The notes under the pieces were generated by a model. It was not told where the DNA came from and did no database searches. It saw nothing but the letters and a program-made list of their open reading frames with translations. From Acidobacteriota bacterium (lineage in GTDB: Bacteria > Acidobacteriota > UBA890 > WLXD01), in the NCBI GenBank assembly GCA_963666055.2, contig CAXWPH010000015.1, positions 608,001 to 672,000 of the forward strand: a stretch of 64,000 bases of DNA. Direction: 5' to 3'. Numbering within the stretch: position 1 is the first letter of the stretch; each line of letters opens with the position of its first letter. This document shows, one piece after another, positions 6,156 through 61,352 of this stretch. A program made the position numbers and the translations under genes.

Positions 6156-6172
6156 GGTCTCTCCCTGACTAG

Positions 6173-6443
6173 TGTCCTGTAACACAGGTTCGTTGCGTAT
6201 TGCTGGGTCGAGATGGGGGCAAGCTCAAGGCGCGATGAGAATGACGATGCCACGCCCATCGTCGACGAATCGCAACGCTGAGATTGCCCCCATATCGACC
6301 CAGCCCTCCGGGTGGCCACGGGACTGGCCACCTCCGGCGTCGGCCCTCCTCTACGATACGCTCAGCATCGCCGTCGTCGAGCCTCCTTGGATTCGACTCA
6401 GTCGCGTGCGCCACAATATGCAACGAACCTGTGTTACAGGGCA
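6173..6443. mobile_element. 271-bp MITE, family B
   Basis: 30-bp TIRs TGTCCTGTAACACAGGTTCGTTGCGTATTG / CAATATGCAACGAACCTGTGTTACAGGGCA (28/30); CTAG at 6169-6172 and CTGT on the right; two 101-nt hairpins joined by CCCTCCGGG. Confidence 0.85.
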
Positions 6444-6542
6444 CTGTATGGTGCGCGGCATTCTCCCTGCCCGAGGGCGTGCCGCACAACCCTTGCAGCG
6501 ACTGAGTGCGACAGTCCAAGCCCGAGAGGTTCAACAATCGTG

Positions 6543-8885: not shown

Positions 8886-8918
8886 GACCGCTCTCCTCAG
8901 AAGCAGTTTTTCATCTAG

Positions 8919-8935
8919 TGTCCTGAGTCAGGACA
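8919..8935. mobile_element. Collapsed 17-bp family-B-like scar flanked by CTAG
   Basis: CTAG-TGTCCTGA-G-TCAGGACA-CTAG palindrome; TGTCCTG equals the family-B terminus. Confidence 0.7.
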
Positions 8936-8939
8936 CTAG

Positions 8940-9210
8940 CAGGCCGTGGTGGAAGTGTGGCGGGCCTGGCGACAGGGTCTTGCGAGGTGGAGGCAAGGAG
9001 AGAGGAGGAGGCGATGGCTGCCCCATCGTTGACGACGAGCGACGCAGCATACGCGCGCAACCCCCTATCGCCCGGAGGGTTACGGCGATTTGGGGTCATC
9101 TGCGGCGTTGGCCCTCCTGGACGATGGCTGGAGCATCGCCGGCGTCAGGCCGCCTTCCATCTGACCCCAACTCGCCGTAATCAGGCCCGCCACACTTCCA
9201 CCACGGCCTG
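8940..9210. mobile_element. 271-bp MITE, family A
   Basis: Perfect 29-bp TIRs CAGGCCGTGGTGGAAGTGTGGCGGGCCTG; CTAG on both sides (8936-8939, 9211-9214); second copy at 36631-36895. Confidence 0.92.
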
Positions 9211-9214
9211 CTAG

Positions 9215-9234
9215 CCGGGTGCTGAAGAACTCTG
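9215..9234. mobile_element. 20-bp family-C mini element
   Basis: CCGGGTGCTGAAGAACTCTG between CTAG and CTAA; 19/20 identical to the reverse complement of 42871-42890. Confidence 0.75.
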
Positions 9235-9295
9235 CTAATACCATGAGGCGACTGACAATGCTGGTGCTACGAGCACCTGCAGCAGCCGAAGGAGC

Positions 9296-18711: not shown

Positions 18712-18770
18712 TCGGTACCTCTCTGGCTGACCGGGACGCTCTCGAGCTGCGGGAGACGCTACCACCCTAG

Positions 18771-18799
18771 CAGGCCGTGGTGGGAGTGTGGCGGGCCTG
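18771..18799. mobile_element. Collapsed 29-bp family-A scar
   Basis: CTAG-CAGGCCGTGGTGGGAGTGTGGCGGGCCTG-CTAG: a single TIR length between two CTAGs. Confidence 0.85.
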
Positions 18800-18803
18800 C
18801 TAG

Positions 18804-22628: not shown

Positions 22629-23797
22629 GGAAGGTCTGATCAATTGGCCGTCAGTCAGGATGGAGCCTGATTGGAGGAACTGGTCGGCATGAGGGTGGGA
22701 ATGCAGTCGCCCTCCGAGCTGCTGCCGACGGGTTCAACCGCGACGGCGGCCTCTCAGGGTGCCTGTTTCAGGTGTGCGCGAGCAGCACCTTGCGTGCCAT
22801 GAATAGGTTGGCCAACGCGCAGGTCACGAAGAGCCGGTGCGCGTTCTTGTGGAGCCCTCGGTATCGGACCTTTCTGAAGCCGAAGATGCGCTTGATCACC
22901 AGCATCGGGTGCTCGACTTTGGCCCGCACCTTCGACTTGGTGCGGTTTCGAGCTCGGTCTCGCTCGGTCAGTGGCCGGTGACGGTGCCCTTTCTTGTTGG
23001 TGAAGTCCTTGGCACCGGGAGCACACCGGACAATGACCTCCCGTCGGCCCGTATAAGCGCTGTCTCCCCACACCCGCGTCTCCTGCCCATGCAGCAGATC
23101 CTCTAGCACCTGGCTGTCATGGACATTGGCGGCGGTGGCCACGACCGAGTGAATGAGCTTGGATTTGCTGTCCACACCGAAGTGTCCCTTCATCCCGAAG
23201 TACCATTGGTTGCCCTTCTTGGTCGAGCGCATCTCCGGATCCCGCTGCTTGGCCTTGTTCTTGGTCGATGACGGGGCGGTGATGATCGTCGCGTCGACGA
23301 TGGTGCCCGTGCTGACCTTCAGCCCCCGCCCCTGCAGGTGCTCGGCAACGATGTGGAACACCTGCACGCCCAGCTCGTGGGTCTCCAGAAGGTGCCGGAA
23401 CTTGCACACCGTCGTCTCGTCCGGCGCCGGCTCCCGTCCCAGATCGATCCCCACGAAGGCACGCATCGCCCGCGAGTCGTACAGCGCCTCCTCCACCCCC
23501 GGGTCCGACAGGTTGAACCACTGCTGCATGAAGTAGATGCGCAGCATCCTCTCCAGCCCGACTGGGCGCCGTCCCGCTCCCTTCGGCTTCGGATACACCG
23601 GCTCGATCAAAGCGCACAGCTGGGCCCACGGCACCACCTGATCCATCTCTGCCAGGAACCGCTCCCGGCGGGTCACCTTCCGGTACTGCTCAAAGGACCC
23701 TTCGGCAAGCGTCTGCTGGCGCATTCCCTTCTCCCTCTGGCGGCGTGATCGGATCCGCGTGCATTATCCCATCGAACCCGAATTGATCAGAGGTTCC
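22629..23797 (-). mobile_element. Complete IS5-family insertion sequence (1169 bp)
   Basis: TIRs GGAAGGTCTGATCAATT / AATTGATCAGAGGTTCC (15/17); TTAA target duplication at 22625-22628 and 23798-23801. Confidence 0.95.
22768..23724 (-). CDS. IS5-family DDE transposase
   Basis: TRRERFLAEM, QQWFNLSD, VDATII, KKGNQWYFGMKGH, GDSAY, RAKVEHP. Confidence 0.96.
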   Translation of the reverse strand: MRQQTLAEGSFEQYRKVTRRERFLAEMDQVVPWAQLCALIEPVYPKPKGAGRRPVGLERMLRIYFMQQWFNLSDPGVEEALYDSRAMRAFVGIDLGREPAPDETTVCKFRHLLETHELGVQVFHIVAEHLQGRGLKVSTGTIVDATIITAPSSTKNKAKQRDPEMRSTKKGNQWYFGMKGHFGVDSKSKLIHSVVATAANVHDSQVLEDLLHGQETRVWGDSAYTGRREVIVRCAPGAKDFTNKKGHRHRPLTERDRARNRTKSKVRAKVEHPMLVIKRIFGFRKVRYRGLHKNAHRLFVTCALANLFMARKVLLAHT

Positions 23798-36264: not shown

Positions 36265-36630
36265 ATGGCTGACTACTTGTTGCTCTACCAAGGCGGCGAC
36301 CCCAACTGGCGGGACCAGCGAACAGCGGAGCAGATGCAGGCGGTGATGCAGGAATGGGGCGCCTGGTTCAAGGAGCTGGAGGCCTCTGGGCAGCTGCGTA
36401 ATCCGGGGGCGCCGCTGCTGCCGGAAGGCATCGCCCTGAGGCGCGACGGCGATGGGTTCGCCACCGACACCACGATGGCCGAGGTGAAGGAGCTGATCGG
36501 CGGCTACTCGGTCATCACCGCCAACTCCCTCGAGGAGGCCTCCTCGTTGGCCCAGGGCTGCCCGTTCCTCAACTACCATCCCGAAGGCGCCGTGCTGGTC
36601 AGGCCGGTAATGTCGATACCCGAGGGCTAG
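36265..36630 (+). CDS. YciI/DGPF-family protein
   Basis: YLLLY, WGAWFKEL, EVKELIGGY..I.A.SLEEA...CP; AAGGAGG RBS. Confidence 0.88.
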   Translation: MADYLLLYQGGDPNWRDQRTAEQMQAVMQEWGAWFKELEASGQLRNPGAPLLPEGIALRRDGDGFATDTTMAEVKELIGGYSVITANSLEEASSLAQGCPFLNYHPEGAVLVRPVMSIPEG

Positions 36631-36895
36631 CAGGCCGTAGTGTGGCGGGCCTGGATACGGCGAGCTGGGGCCGGATACAAGGCGGCCTGACACAGGCGAT
36701 GCCCTAGCCATCGTCGAAGAAGGCCAACGCCGCAGATGGCCCCAAATCGCCGTAACCCTTCGGGCGACAGGGGGTTGCGCGCCTATGCTGCGTCGTTCCT
36801 CGTCAACGATGGGGGTTCCATCGCCTTCTCCTCTCTCCTTGCCTCCCCCTCGCAAGACCCTGTCGCCAGACCCACCATACTTTCACCACGGCCTG
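36631..36895. mobile_element. Family-A MITE, inverted copy (265 bp; 6-bp deletion in one TIR)
   Basis: Aligns end-to-end with the reverse complement of 8940-9210; CTAG at 36627-36630 and 36896-36899. Confidence 0.92.
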
Positions 36896-38179
36896 CTAGT
36901 CTCCACTGCCGGCGCGTCGCACCTGCTGGGCGATGAACTCGCGCTCGTGCTCGGTGCGCGCCTGCGACAACGCCTGGTCCAAGAACGCGTCGGCCGGCTG
37001 CTGGTAGCCGGCTCGCGCGTACAGGTTGGCGAGAACGGCGGCAACCGCATGGCTATGCGTCAACTTGCCTTCCTCGCGAATAGAGTCGACCAGCGGAATC
37101 GCTGCCTCTGGCCCGTCTCGGTACGAGATCGCCACCGCCCGGTTCAGCTCCACCACCGGCGATGGCGCAGCCTCCCGCAACCGGTCGTACAAACGACAGA
37201 TCGACTTCCAGTCGGTCTCTGCGAACGTTGGCGCCGAGCAATGGCGTGCCGCGACCGCCGCTTCGAGATGAAAGCGGCTGGCAGCAACCGCTTCCATGGC
37301 CGAGGCTCGGGCGAGATCGTCATATCCGAGGCGAATCAACTCCTGGTCCCACAGCGATCGGTCCTGCTGATCCAGTGGAACCAGGCGTCCAGCCTCATCG
37401 AGCCGCGATCGCAGCCGAGCCGTGTTGAACCGCATGATCGCAAGAAGAGCGATTGTGTCGCTGCTGGCGAGCCCAGGAGTCTCCGCTAGCAGGAGCGTCA
37501 GCTCCAGCGCGTCGTGACAAAGCTCCTTGAGAATCGGCTGATCGCTGGTCGACAGGTACCCCTCGTTGAACAGCAGATACAGCGAGGTGTGGACGGTGGC
37601 CAGCGCCCCTGCCCGGTCTTTCTCTGTTGGAATGACGAACTCCAGGCTTCGTACCTGACGCCGCGTTCGGTACAGACGCTTGTTGATGGTCGACTCGGTG
37701 GTGAGCGGGGCGCGCGCGATCGCCGGGACGCTCAGCCCGCACAGAGTCTTGAGGATGAGCGTGGTGCGGTTCTCGGGGGTTAGCGACTGATGACAGCACA
37801 TGAAGATCATGCGCAGCTGGTCATCGCGAATGCCTTGCTCTTCGAAGGCCTCGTCGACCGTTGGCGACAGCGTCCACTCGCTGTCGAGGTAGACGGCCAG
37901 GTCGTTGGCGAAGGTGCGCCGCGTGCGCTCGCGTCGAATCACGTCGATGGCGCGATTACGAGCGGTCGTCAACAACCAGGCACTCGGGTTGTCCGGAATT
38001 CCCTTGCGCGCCCAGCTGTCCATGGCGCGCACGAACGACTCCTGAACGACATCCTCTGCCAGATCGAGGTTGTGCGAGCCGAGGATGCGCGTCAGCACCG
38101 AAATCAGGCGGCGCGACTCGCGCCGGAACAGCATCTCGATCTCGTCATTCGGTGCCGCGCTAGTATCTGGTGCTTCCAT
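36896..38179 (-). CDS. ECF sigma factor with C-terminal TPR extension (ECF42-type)
   Basis: LAEDVVQE, WLLTTARNRAIDVIRR, DDQLRMIFMCCH, LYLLFNEGY, LDQQDRSLWD, VVELNRAVA. Confidence 0.92.
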   Translation of the reverse strand: MEAPDTSAAPNDEIEMLFRRESRRLISVLTRILGSHNLDLAEDVVQESFVRAMDSWARKGIPDNPSAWLLTTARNRAIDVIRRERTRRTFANDLAVYLDSEWTLSPTVDEAFEEQGIRDDQLRMIFMCCHQSLTPENRTTLILKTLCGLSVPAIARAPLTTESTINKRLYRTRRQVRSLEFVIPTEKDRAGALATVHTSLYLLFNEGYLSTSDQPILKELCHDALELTLLLAETPGLASSDTIALLAIMRFNTARLRSRLDEAGRLVPLDQQDRSLWDQELIRLGYDDLARASAMEAVAASRFHLEAAVAARHCSAPTFAETDWKSICRLYDRLREAAPSPVVELNRAVAISYRDGPEAAIPLVDSIREEGKLTHSHAVAAVLANLYARAGYQQPADAFLDQALSQARTEHEREFIAQQVRRAGSGD

Positions 38180-42733: not shown

Positions 42734-42870
42734 AGCAGAGTACGGCCGGCAATCCCTGCCCGTCAAGACCCCGCCAGCGGCGACTCGCCCGACGGTCTTG
42801 TGTATGGTCAACCCCGACGCTCCCCCGAGCCATATCGTGCTGCCGGTGATGCCGCGCTAGGGCCTTCTAG

Positions 42871-42890
42871 CAGAGTTCTTCAGCACCCTG
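42871..42890. mobile_element. 20-bp family-C mini element with CTAG duplication
   Basis: CTAG-CAGAGTTCTTCAGCACCCTG-CTAG inside the palindromic site GCCTT-CTAG-AAGGC. Confidence 0.8.
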
Positions 42891-44621
42891 CTAGAAGGCG
42901 CTGTCGGCCAGCGTGATGACGCGGCCAGGAAGCGCCCCGGTCAGGCGGCCTTCCTCGACGACAGCCTCGCCCCCGACCAGCACCCACTCGACGCCCTCGG
43001 CAAACTGGTGCGGCTCGCTGAACGTCGCCCGGTCGCGAATCCTCTCGAGATCGAAGACCACGAGGTCCGCCACCAGGCCCTCACGTACCAGGCCCCGGTC
43101 GTTGAGCCGTAGCACCTGCGCCGGTAGCGATGTCGACGTGCGCACCGCCTGTGCGACGCTGAGCGCCCCCAGCTCGATCGCGTAGCGCCGAATCTTGCGT
43201 GGAAAAGTCCCGTAGTAGCGAGCGTGAACCGGAAGCTCATCCTCGACTACCGCGACGCCGGCGTCGGAAGCGGTCAGCGTGTAAGGCTCGGCCGCCAGAG
43301 CCTCGACGTCGACCTCGGCGAGCGAGAATCCGCGCAGGCGAGCGCCACCCGGGCGCGTCGTGAACCCCTCGAGCTGAAGAAGGATCGCCGCCTCGATGGG
43401 TTCGACCCCACGATCGCGGGCGAGCTGAGCGAGCGACTTGCCGACTTGTGTCGGGTCCGAGTACTCGAAGATGAAGATCTGCTCGGCCCCACCGCGGCGA
43501 TCGATCTCACGGCGGACGTCGCGCCCCAGGTCGGCACGGAGGGCGTCGTCGTCGAGGACATGGCGCAAAGTGGCGGCGTAATCGGGGTCGGCGGCTTCCT
43601 CGTCGCCACTCTCGCCCCAACGATCGTAGCCCAGCGCCCATGGCGGGATCAGCACTGTGTTGCCGTCGCTTCCCGTAGTCGTGTACGGGTACTGGTCTAA
43701 CCAGATCTCGACGCCGCGGGCGCGCGCCGTCCGCATCAAGTTGATGATGGCGCCGCTAGAGCCCCAGTAGTCGGCACCTTTCACCTTGATGTGGGTGGCC
43801 ACCGTGGGGACACGCGTGGACTCGGCGATAAGAATCGTCTCGACGATGTTGTCGAGCATTGTCGGCGGCCCGGGCTCATGCCGGCTCGGCAGATACCACA
43901 TGGGGTCGGCGCCCGAGGCACGCTCGTGCACGATGTACACGCCACCGGTATCGGTGAGCGTCGATACCAAACTGAGCACCTCGGAGGTATCGCTCCATCG
44001 CCCCGGTACGTATTCGAGCCCCGCGGACAGGCCGTAGGCGCCCTCGGCGATGCCCTGGCGCACCATGGCGGCCATGCGCCGCACCTCATCGTCGGTCGCC
44101 AGACGTCGAAAGTCGGGCCCGAGCACCTCGCGGCGAATGCTGTTGTGGCCCACCAGCAGAATGGTGTTGGGGCCGGTACCGAGGTCTTCCAGGGTGGCCC
44201 GTTGCCGGGCGATCGACAGCGGGCTGCCGCCGTCCTGATTGACCACCACCGTGGTGATGCCCTGGCTGACCAGGTTCGGTGCGCTGCGCTTGTGTGGATC
44301 CGGTGCACGCAGCCCGCTGCGTTCTCCGTCGGGACCATCGGCGTGCGAGTGCATGTCGATGAAGCCGGGGGCGACGATCTTACCAGCGACGTCGATCACG
44401 CGGTCGGCGGGCGCCCCACTCAGCCGCCCGACGGCAGCGATGCGCCCGTCCTTGATGCCAACGTCGGCGTAGCGCCATGGATTGCCCGTGCCGTCGAGTA
44501 CCCGGCCGCCGACGAGCAACAGGTCGTAGCCGTCGGCCGCGAGGGTCGAGCCACCGGTGGCGACGGCGAGCAACATCGTCAGTGCCAGCGCCCCGCCGTG
44601 GCCAACAATTCGCTCGTTCAT
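42891..44621 (-). CDS. Secreted N-acyl-D-amino-acid deacylase family amidohydrolase
   Basis: DGTGNPW, PGFIDMHSH, GLEYVPG, DQYPY, RYYGTFPR, ADLVVFD. Confidence 0.9.
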   Translation of the reverse strand: MNERIVGHGGALALTMLLAVATGGSTLAADGYDLLLVGGRVLDGTGNPWRYADVGIKDGRIAAVGRLSGAPADRVIDVAGKIVAPGFIDMHSHADGPDGERSGLRAPDPHKRSAPNLVSQGITTVVVNQDGGSPLSIARQRATLEDLGTGPNTILLVGHNSIRREVLGPDFRRLATDDEVRRMAAMVRQGIAEGAYGLSAGLEYVPGRWSDTSEVLSLVSTLTDTGGVYIVHERASGADPMWYLPSRHEPGPPTMLDNIVETILIAESTRVPTVATHIKVKGADYWGSSGAIINLMRTARARGVEIWLDQYPYTTTGSDGNTVLIPPWALGYDRWGESGDEEAADPDYAATLRHVLDDDALRADLGRDVRREIDRRGGAEQIFIFEYSDPTQVGKSLAQLARDRGVEPIEAAILLQLEGFTTRPGGARLRGFSLAEVDVEALAAEPYTLTASDAGVAVVEDELPVHARYYGTFPRKIRRYAIELGALSVAQAVRTSTSLPAQVLRLNDRGLVREGLVADLVVFDLERIRDRATFSEPHQFAEGVEWVLVGGEAVVEEGRLTGALPGRVITLADSAF

Positions 44622-60950: not shown

Positions 60951-61322
60951 TCAACGTGCCCGCAGCGCCAGGACGAGAGCCTCTCGGCCGGACGGCACGG
61001 CGACGCGCGTCGGAGGCCCGGCCAGCTTAGCCGGCACCGACAGTTGCTGCAGGGCCGCGCCGGTTTCGACATCGAGAAACTCCCCCGTCATCGACCGGGG
61101 CAACTTCAGTAAGAGCTCTGAAGCCAGCGTGGTTTCTTCCATATACACGATGACCTGGTCTCGGCCGAACAGGCCGAATGTCGGTCCGGGTGACCTGGCT
61201 CCACGGAAGTACTCGGAGCCGGGCGGCATTCGGATGAAGATGACATCCTCCCACGCCAGGTTGCCCAACAGTGCGCTGAGCCTTCCCGGTGTCGCCTGGA
61301 GGATCCGATACAGGTGGTCTAG
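60951..61322 (-). pseudogene. C-terminal fragment of an unknown gene cut at a family-A end
   Basis: Coding-like frame begins exactly at CTAG 61319-61322. Confidence 0.45.
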
Positions 61323-61352
61323 CAGGCCGTGGTGAAAGTGTGGTGGTTCTGG
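61323..61352. mobile_element. Family-A element end
   Basis: CTAG-CAGGCCGTGGTGAAAGTGTGGTGGTTCTG; another CTAG at 61373-61376. Confidence 0.8.

Follow-up and report, generated by a model that had tools for sequence, protein, structure and literature searches.

The window analysed here, a stretch of 64,000 nucleotides from the genome of an Acidobacteriota bacterium, carries at 8936-9214 a complete MITE of 279 bp, including CTAG at both ends. The element was assigned to family A, is flanked by a divergent homocysteine S-methyltransferase gene and an amidohydrolase gene, and was delimited from its sequence, its BLAST copies and empty orthologous sites, which hold a single CTAG. Its left terminal inverted repeat (8939-8968, + strand), the outer part of which resembles the ends of an IS1182-like insertion sequence (IS), and its right one (9182-9211, - strand) form perfect inverted repeats of 33 nt, 100% complementary and starting with the CTAG. 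The stretch 8969-9180 is the interior of the element. Hairpin arm 1 (8969-9071) folds with a core on the + strand and hairpin arm 2 (9079-9181) with a core on the - strand, as determined by folding and with a covariance model; the central linker (9072-9078, +) reads CC-GGA-GG, which on one strand makes a purine triloop closed by a 2-bp stem. Folding z-scores of the two strands of 8936-9214 were -10.0 and -11.0 against shuffled sequences, for a structure of an end stem, two arms and the 7-nt linker. No open reading frame of at least 100 aa was found within 8936-9214, and a scan of the element for promoters and terminators found none.

Two further core-bearing elements lie in the window, a family-B element with unrelated ends at 6169-6447 and a second family-A copy at 36627-36899 (- strand), one end of which has a short deletion. 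The element at 8936-9214 is bordered by a collapsed palindromic relic of a B-type element (8915-8939), with which it has its left CTAG in common, and by a collapsed relic of a C-type element (9211-9238, +), with which it has its right CTAG in common. Three families are stacked at 8915-9238 with shared CTAG words; every insertion recreates CTAG targets. The pattern of the B-type relic has 10 strand-matches in the genome, where palindromes can count twice. Relics consisting of ends only were seen in the window at 1162-1194, 18767-18803, 42867-42894 and 61319-61351, probably the products of deletions between short repeats that lie within the terminal repeats; matches to family-A ends (410) are far more numerous than intact elements.

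Copies, empty sites and partner insertion sequences

BLAST searches found 89 near-full family-A copies in the genome and family-A matches in 22 of the 41 genomes searched, most of them from the same order. A genome-wide profile search gave 285 cores in 165 loci (100 with two cores, 57 with one and 8 nested), with at least four types of ends. When 30 copies from a congeneric genome were mapped to this genome, five mapped with a gap of exactly -4, leaving one CTAG-like site; two of these five map to the same site, and 14 of the 30 were without matching flanks. The outermost letters vary (NTAG on the left, CTAN on the right), which fits a duplication of TA. The element at 8936-9214 is thus a MITE, being short, non-coding and multicopy, with inverted repeats, empty sites and an autonomous partner that has the same ends.

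This partner (L031) is a 1.5-kb IS in a relative, with the ends of family A. The best of six profiles for its transposase was IS1182 with 158.6 bits, below the NF033551 cut-off of 270, and it is accordingly called IS1182-like only. In other relatives, IS5-family elements match other end types, and C-type ends match the IS5 family. A cognate transposase for family-A ends was not found in this genome. The core was found in none of the seven autonomous DUF772-type IS loci tested, some of which have matching ends; since it is also common to several end families, the MITE interior does not come from the partner IS and is not a remnant of IS deletion. In genome G007, which has 106 DUF772 matches, an IS at two loci (L019 and L028) carries C-type ends, making this genome a candidate for a currently active transposase-MITE pair. 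The IS5-family transposase encoded in the window at 22768-23724 (- strand) belongs to an IS with a TTAA target, GGAACC ends and eight near-identical copies in the genome; it was considered as a partner and rejected, as it does not match families A-D. One core-bearing MITE (L274) has GGAACCTCTG ends similar to those of this IS.

Several copies in genome G000 are rearranged. Nested insertions into the CTAG of the apical loop of family-A core 2 were observed at C15 2213917-2214280, C1 107440-107801 and C3 136961-137514. The apical loop was also considered as a guide to the target and rejected, as CTAG is confined to the core-2 loop of family A, where it draws nested insertions. A tandem run of family-A right-end fragments of ~83 bp at C11 160026-160413 probably arose from repeated nested insertion or slippage. 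A hybrid at C15 429323-429601 has a left half from family A and a right half from family C, from which it follows that arms and ends recombine.

Fold, distribution and spacing of the core

A preliminary description had reported a strand-asymmetric motif present once on each strand of every element, in six copies over three elements of the window. The covariance model built in this analysis found these six as significant cores, one per strand in each element: 6212-6294 (+) and 6321-6404 (-) in family B, 8979-9061 (+) and 9089-9171 (-) in the element at 8936-9214, and 36664-36746 (+) and 36774-36856 (-) in the second family-A copy. They score 49.7-82.7 bits with a model whose training set included two of the window cores and close relatives of the remaining four, and the next best match in the window reached 18.9 bits. 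The best core (82.7 bits) scores 14.9 bits on its opposite strand. Loop variation and the change of a stem from GGGGTC/GACCCC to GGGGCC/GGCCCC were present in the sequence as had been described. One core per strand is true of the three window elements and not of the genome as a whole, where 57 of the 165 core loci carry one core.

Core 1 (8994-9047, + strand; 63.4 bits) begins 55 nt inside the left TA and consists of CAAGGA, a degenerate 5-bp P2, GA-G-GA, P3 GGCGATG, the loop, CATCGTT, GA-C-GA and GACGC, with CAAGG at 8994-8998, the apical loop GCTGCCC at 9017-9023 and ACGC at 9042-9045; the stem between its two loops has just two of five standard pairs. Core 2 (9103-9157, - strand; 78.6 bits) begins 54 nt inside the right TA and consists of AAGGC, P2 GGCCT/AGGCC, GA-C-G, P3, the loop CTCCAGC and AACGC, with AAGG at 9156-9153 and ACGC at 9108-9105; its closing C-G is replaced by G.G.

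The general layout was derived from 48 diverse cores. An outer stem (P1) is followed inwards by an internal loop with AA opposite GCN, a G-C pair, a tandem of G.A and M.R, a 5-bp P2, a GA/GA tandem, a single C-G or G-C pair, either a further GA tandem or a 1-nt bulge, a 7-bp P3 and a variable loop. Each core has three to four tandem G.A sites, one of them preceded by AAG. In these sequences 89.2% of cells were paired, compared with 71.5% after shuffling (the 48 are related, so that the shuffle figure is not a probability) and 30-51% in slid registers, and 18 of the 26 pairs had changed on both sides. The case for the motif had been made to depend on internal-loop nucleotides being better conserved than their flanks; column conservation was 0.97-1.00 for loops and tandems against 0.61 in P2, 0.68 in the outer stem and 0.51 in the apical loop. 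All 48 cores have GA in column pair 33.65 and AG in 34.64, which would form tandem G.A and A.G pairs. A further non-canonical pair switches between C.A (44) and A.G (33), with four other combinations, and a G.U in P3 is retained in 38/48 cores. The excess of G.T over A.C in the helices of the core strand (95:26 and 44:9) indicates that only one strand folds well, and the core strand was predicted to be the more stable in 91% (RNA parameters) and 87% (DNA parameters) of 169 cores. The motif is a conserved, strand-specific, covarying hairpin core, and the tandem G.A fold proposed for it is borne out by column conservation and covariation.

Within the phylum, the covariance model matches 44 of 151 genomes. 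A descriptor fixing the loop letters only, applied to one genome per species, gave at least 115 stretches, and 77 of the 80 matches listed were accepted by the model. Complementarity of the one pair separating the GA tandems was not demanded by the descriptor and was likewise seen in 77 of the 80 matches listed, where the C.A/A.G pair was CA in 59, AG in 18 and otherwise in three. In the cross-phylum set (87 distinct sequences, in an alignment fitted to the model), 89.7% were paired compared with 57.0% after shuffling. Ten descriptor matches on viral contigs were not significant by the model (best E 0.036) and provide a control, as the descriptor letters alone do not pass. A plasmid search with a Pseudomonas copy as query gave no match.

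Accepted loci among the matches listed came from Acidobacteriota, Planctomycetota, Pseudomonadota, Gemmatimonadota, Desulfobacterota and Myxococcota, and further from Bacillota, Actinomycetota, Spirochaetota, Verrucomicrobiota, Bdellovibrionota and Saccharibacteria; they are mostly from metagenome bins, some of them possibly misbinned. On these matches, transposon ends of unrelated kinds accompany the core in at least about 12 groups of phylum rank. P3 is free to vary across the cross-phylum loci, which makes the G(G/A)CGATG/CATCG stem, part of the motif as first described and present in the window elements, a local, lineage-specific form.

At least 10 unrelated end types carry the core, and element lengths are ~165 bp with one core or ~278 bp with two despite the unrelated ends. 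Measured inwards from the TA, the core begins at 53.8 ± 0.8 nt in the 19 single-core elements with a readable TA end (of 33 symmetric ones, among the matches listed). In two-core elements it begins at 54-55 nt for 21 of the 24 ends, the other three ends being unmatched by the script. Two cores are unnecessary, as a single genome contains at least 53 model matches to a family with one core; almost all of them have one or the other of two scores.

Mutation patterns and candidate roles

Mutations were compared in 177 copies from five genomes, leaving out 4/89 hybrid or truncated copies; in genomes G004 and G007 one of the two cores was labelled and the other counted as background. Private mutations were found at 31/112 invariant core sites and 284/1106 stem and end sites, a ratio of 1.08 (95% CI 0.72-1.56, p 0.70) that allows up to 28% depletion and that assembly errors would push towards the null. 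Alleles present in at least three copies occurred at 20/57 apical-loop sites compared with 107/1106 stem and end sites (p 4e-6), and at 8/112 core sites. Sense and non-sense cores, with gene orientation taken from a simple codon model, had 16/2610 and 13/2150 mutations. Since the resident core mutates at the background rate and propagated variants gather in the loops, selection would act when copies spread and not on resident transcripts; the core thus appears to matter when a copy founds new copies, not while it resides in the genome.

From these mutation patterns and the geometry of the elements, we infer that the core is probably a cis-acting enhancer of mobilisation, whichever polymer it is read on. 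That it is read on folded single-stranded DNA has close to an even chance, and among the functions first put forward for the motif recognition of single-stranded DNA fits best. One strand would fold back as a cruciform or as lagging-strand or transcription-displaced DNA, its two terminal repeats pairing into a duplex resembling a transposon end and its purine-rich core adopting a defined internal loop and a stack of sheared G.A pairs. Core and end, separated by about five helical turns, could then be contacted jointly by a widespread host protein or a borrowed IS5/IS1182-type transposase. New bursts would start from copies whose core is intact, and the two-core form would put a core behind each 5' end.

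DNA is favoured because the movers are DNA transposases, because same-copy double changes in the paired arms are in excess, because GNRA and UNCG tetraloops are missing from the apical loops (0/40, with ~2 expected by chance and so not significant alone, a weak point), because of the linker triloop, mostly GAA, GGA, AAA or AGA on one strand, and because integron attC sites offer a precedent. A 2-bp stem with a purine triloop is a stable DNA mini-hairpin; the complement of the linker can also be read as UNCG. Against the DNA version, switches from C.A to A.G are isosteric exchanges of the kind found in RNA, and the ends on which DDE transposases normally act are double-stranded. Three further observations count against the enhancer: autonomous ISs move without the core, the enterobacterial repeat ERIC has the same loop at ~22 nt from the end, a different spacing, and the elements show no clear preference for one replication strand, GC skew being weak and the counts going in both directions.

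Mobilisation could instead proceed through RNA, which is rather less likely. A read-through transcript would fold into a long rod, and the transposase, the ribosome making it or a reverse transcriptase would be drawn to the core of this rod, so that the enzyme is brought to the template copy or a new copy is made. The result on the stage of selection would be equally expected, and the C.A/A.G switch and the frequent G.U pairs are in keeping with RNA. Many copies are placed at TAG stop codons (21/36 in the commonest context) and are therefore probably transcribed. The predicted difference between core and opposite strand is larger with RNA parameters (-39.9 vs -32.8 kcal/mol) than with DNA parameters (-19.6 vs -17.6), and nearest-neighbour DNA folding did not recover the core. 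The missing tetraloops of RNA type and the want of a promoter-like site in the element speak against RNA, as do ends and a TA/CTAG target that match DDE ISs; Rfam at the gathering threshold gave no match in the window, and none at E <= 5 over 8936-9214.

The preliminary description had also considered a signal for the processing or stability of transcripts. With the core as a nuclease site, stabiliser or anti-polarity signal in mRNA, the host would tolerate insertions or profit from them, as is reported for ERIC in Yersinia; ERIC acts on upstream mRNA via RNase E (as cited in the available parts of PMC3184786 and PMC10969869). Two-core elements between co-directional genes do show an orientation bias of 42:11, stronger when a downstream gene follows (21:3 vs 4:8, p 0.002). 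The bias is not general, being 33:7 and 13:2 in two genomes and 7:4, 7:7 and 1:5 in three others, and single-core elements have none (18:19 relative to transcription). For family A, we infer that it is due to a polar effect of the reverse of arm 1, which is rich in pyrimidines. A signal benefiting the host is at odds with resident cores that gather private mutations at the background rate, on the transcribed strand or not, and the fixed distance to the transposon end would be unexpected; an mRNA signal is improbable. Either orientation of a two-core element presents one core, and this had been seen as the point of having one copy per strand; the unbiased insertion of single-core elements and the abundance of the one-core family in one genome contradict it.

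Still less probable is an inert core, with covariation produced by arm-to-arm template switching in the palindrome and conservation by common descent. Same-copy double changes between the arms are indeed in excess, 15 compared with ~2.4 expected (the count includes alleles seen twice, possibly inherited), and in some copies the palindrome has become locally perfect (L062, L105). Mismatches would be expected to vanish under template switching; instead, it is the mismatched positions that show the highest conservation, and they are kept across the phylum-level groups among the matches listed, where stems and ends have completely turned over, with the spacing held to ± 1 nt.

The tandem G.A sites, the AAG before one of them and the invariant loop nucleotides would suit a protein site like a kink-turn or a small ribozyme that cleaves itself. 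Either is scarcely credible: in a kink-turn the bulged strand keeps an adenine at the second tandem pair, a position that is C in 21/48 cores and in 61 of the 80 cross-phylum matches listed, and the Rfam search, which included ribozyme and kink-turn-bearing families, gave no match. The core is not a kink-turn, in which one strand has a 3-nt bulge and its partner runs on unbroken into a canonical stem (according to the part of PMC5435971 available): at the AAG site of the core four further nucleotides (CGCN) lie on the opposite strand, G25-C73 is complementary in 47/48 and column 21 covaries with 78, not 75; the other tandems are one pair apart with a bulge of 0-1 nt.

Comparison with known systems

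Bacterial MITEs are usually taken as IS remnants with arbitrary interiors. Here the interior is conserved and the ends are exchangeable, in many phyla, and the structure itself, a MITE with an exchangeable shell around a conserved folded core, is real and well supported. If the core drives mobilisation, this would explain how non-coding elements come to outnumber their parent ISs, bear on the long-standing problem of how ERIC-type repeats are maintained, and point to an unrecognised nucleic-acid fold with a binding partner; transposon tools might also gain a portable enhancer. Should it prove to be inert or no more than an mRNA signal, it is still an uncatalogued structured family that merits an Rfam-style model. 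The available parts of the reviews and of a census (PMC3184786, PMC10969869, PMC11602168, PMC2759123) treat MITE interiors as family-specific or omit a shared core, and no description of a core common to unrelated MITEs was found in the literature searched, most subscription papers lying outside the search.

ISs and MITEs of the IS5/IS1182 families resemble families A and C in their matching ends and TA/CTAG target; the ISs differ from family A in having an interior without the core. In the Yersinia repeat YPAL (Table 1b of PMC2759123, a source available in part), the ends are like the IS5-type ends found here and the interior is different, which suggests a second superfamily with a shared core. 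Rice Stowaway Ost35/14T32 provides a case in which the interior of a MITE enhances transposition by a borrowed transposase; it belongs to a eukaryotic Tc1/mariner system, and the available part of PMC3660474 describes no folded core across families. Integron attC sites are single-stranded DNA hairpins whose active strand has a purine and G:T skew and a GAA tip (PMC5027507, as far as available). Like the core, they are mobile-DNA hairpins read on one strand with the same skew. attC sites have a tyrosine integrase as their recombinase, with R and L boxes and extrahelical bases as their hallmarks; the element at 8936-9214 differs in having DDE-type ends and target duplications.

The Geobacter metallireducens elements Gmet_R1001-R1024 are, like the core-bearing elements, multicopy intergenic hairpins (PMC2700814, Fig. 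S1). On the printed strand GCCTTG occurs in 9/24 and CGTTG in 5/24, corresponding to CAAGGC and CAACG on the other strand, and the tip stem resembles a P3 variant of the core; unlike the core, they have a longer, ERIC-like spacer, and the comparison was made by eye. They were described as 'predicted short RNA elements' with a role as regulatory RNAs, and the part of PMC2700814 available notes no shared core, ends or mobility.

The closest parallel is ERIC/IRU of enterobacteria (127 bp), a TA-flanked, end-to-end hairpin MITE like family A. The element at 8936-9214 was considered as an ERIC/IRU copy and rejected, having 279 bp against the 127-bp consensus and other ends. The consensus of 15 copies from E. 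coli K-12 has AAGGCGGC facing GCCAACGC and, before the tip stem, a GGAG/TGAC tandem-GA step as in the core, and AAGGCG stands at the same position in 12 of the 15 copies. ERIC differs from the core by an extra internal loop of ~12 x 12 nt and a 6-bp stem between the two sub-motifs, by one GA tandem instead of two, by the position of the loop ~22 nt from the end and by its ends. The covariance model gave no hit on the whole E. coli K-12 chromosome; when it was applied to ERIC loci, two of nine scored on the expected strand, with non-significant values of 15.7 and 12.6 bits (E 0.13 and 0.9). Two loci (L095, 1454-1738, and L230) are possible bridges to ERIC, with longer-spaced variants of the core and a TATA-flanked shell, similar to that of ERIC, round a standard core.

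It is possible, if somewhat doubtful, that the core is one 'mobilisation aptamer' found throughout bacteria, with ERIC as a diverged member, and a transferable module that turns almost any TA-targeting IS ends into a high-copy MITE. One folded strand, of DNA or RNA, would be the substrate of transposition, and a conserved host factor would measure the 54 nt from core to end. If so, DDE elements would spread through a single-stranded intermediate, of which no description was found. What ERIC and the core have in common, an AAGGC/AACGC loop and tandem GA on one strand, suggests that they are built on the same plan from shared sub-motifs.
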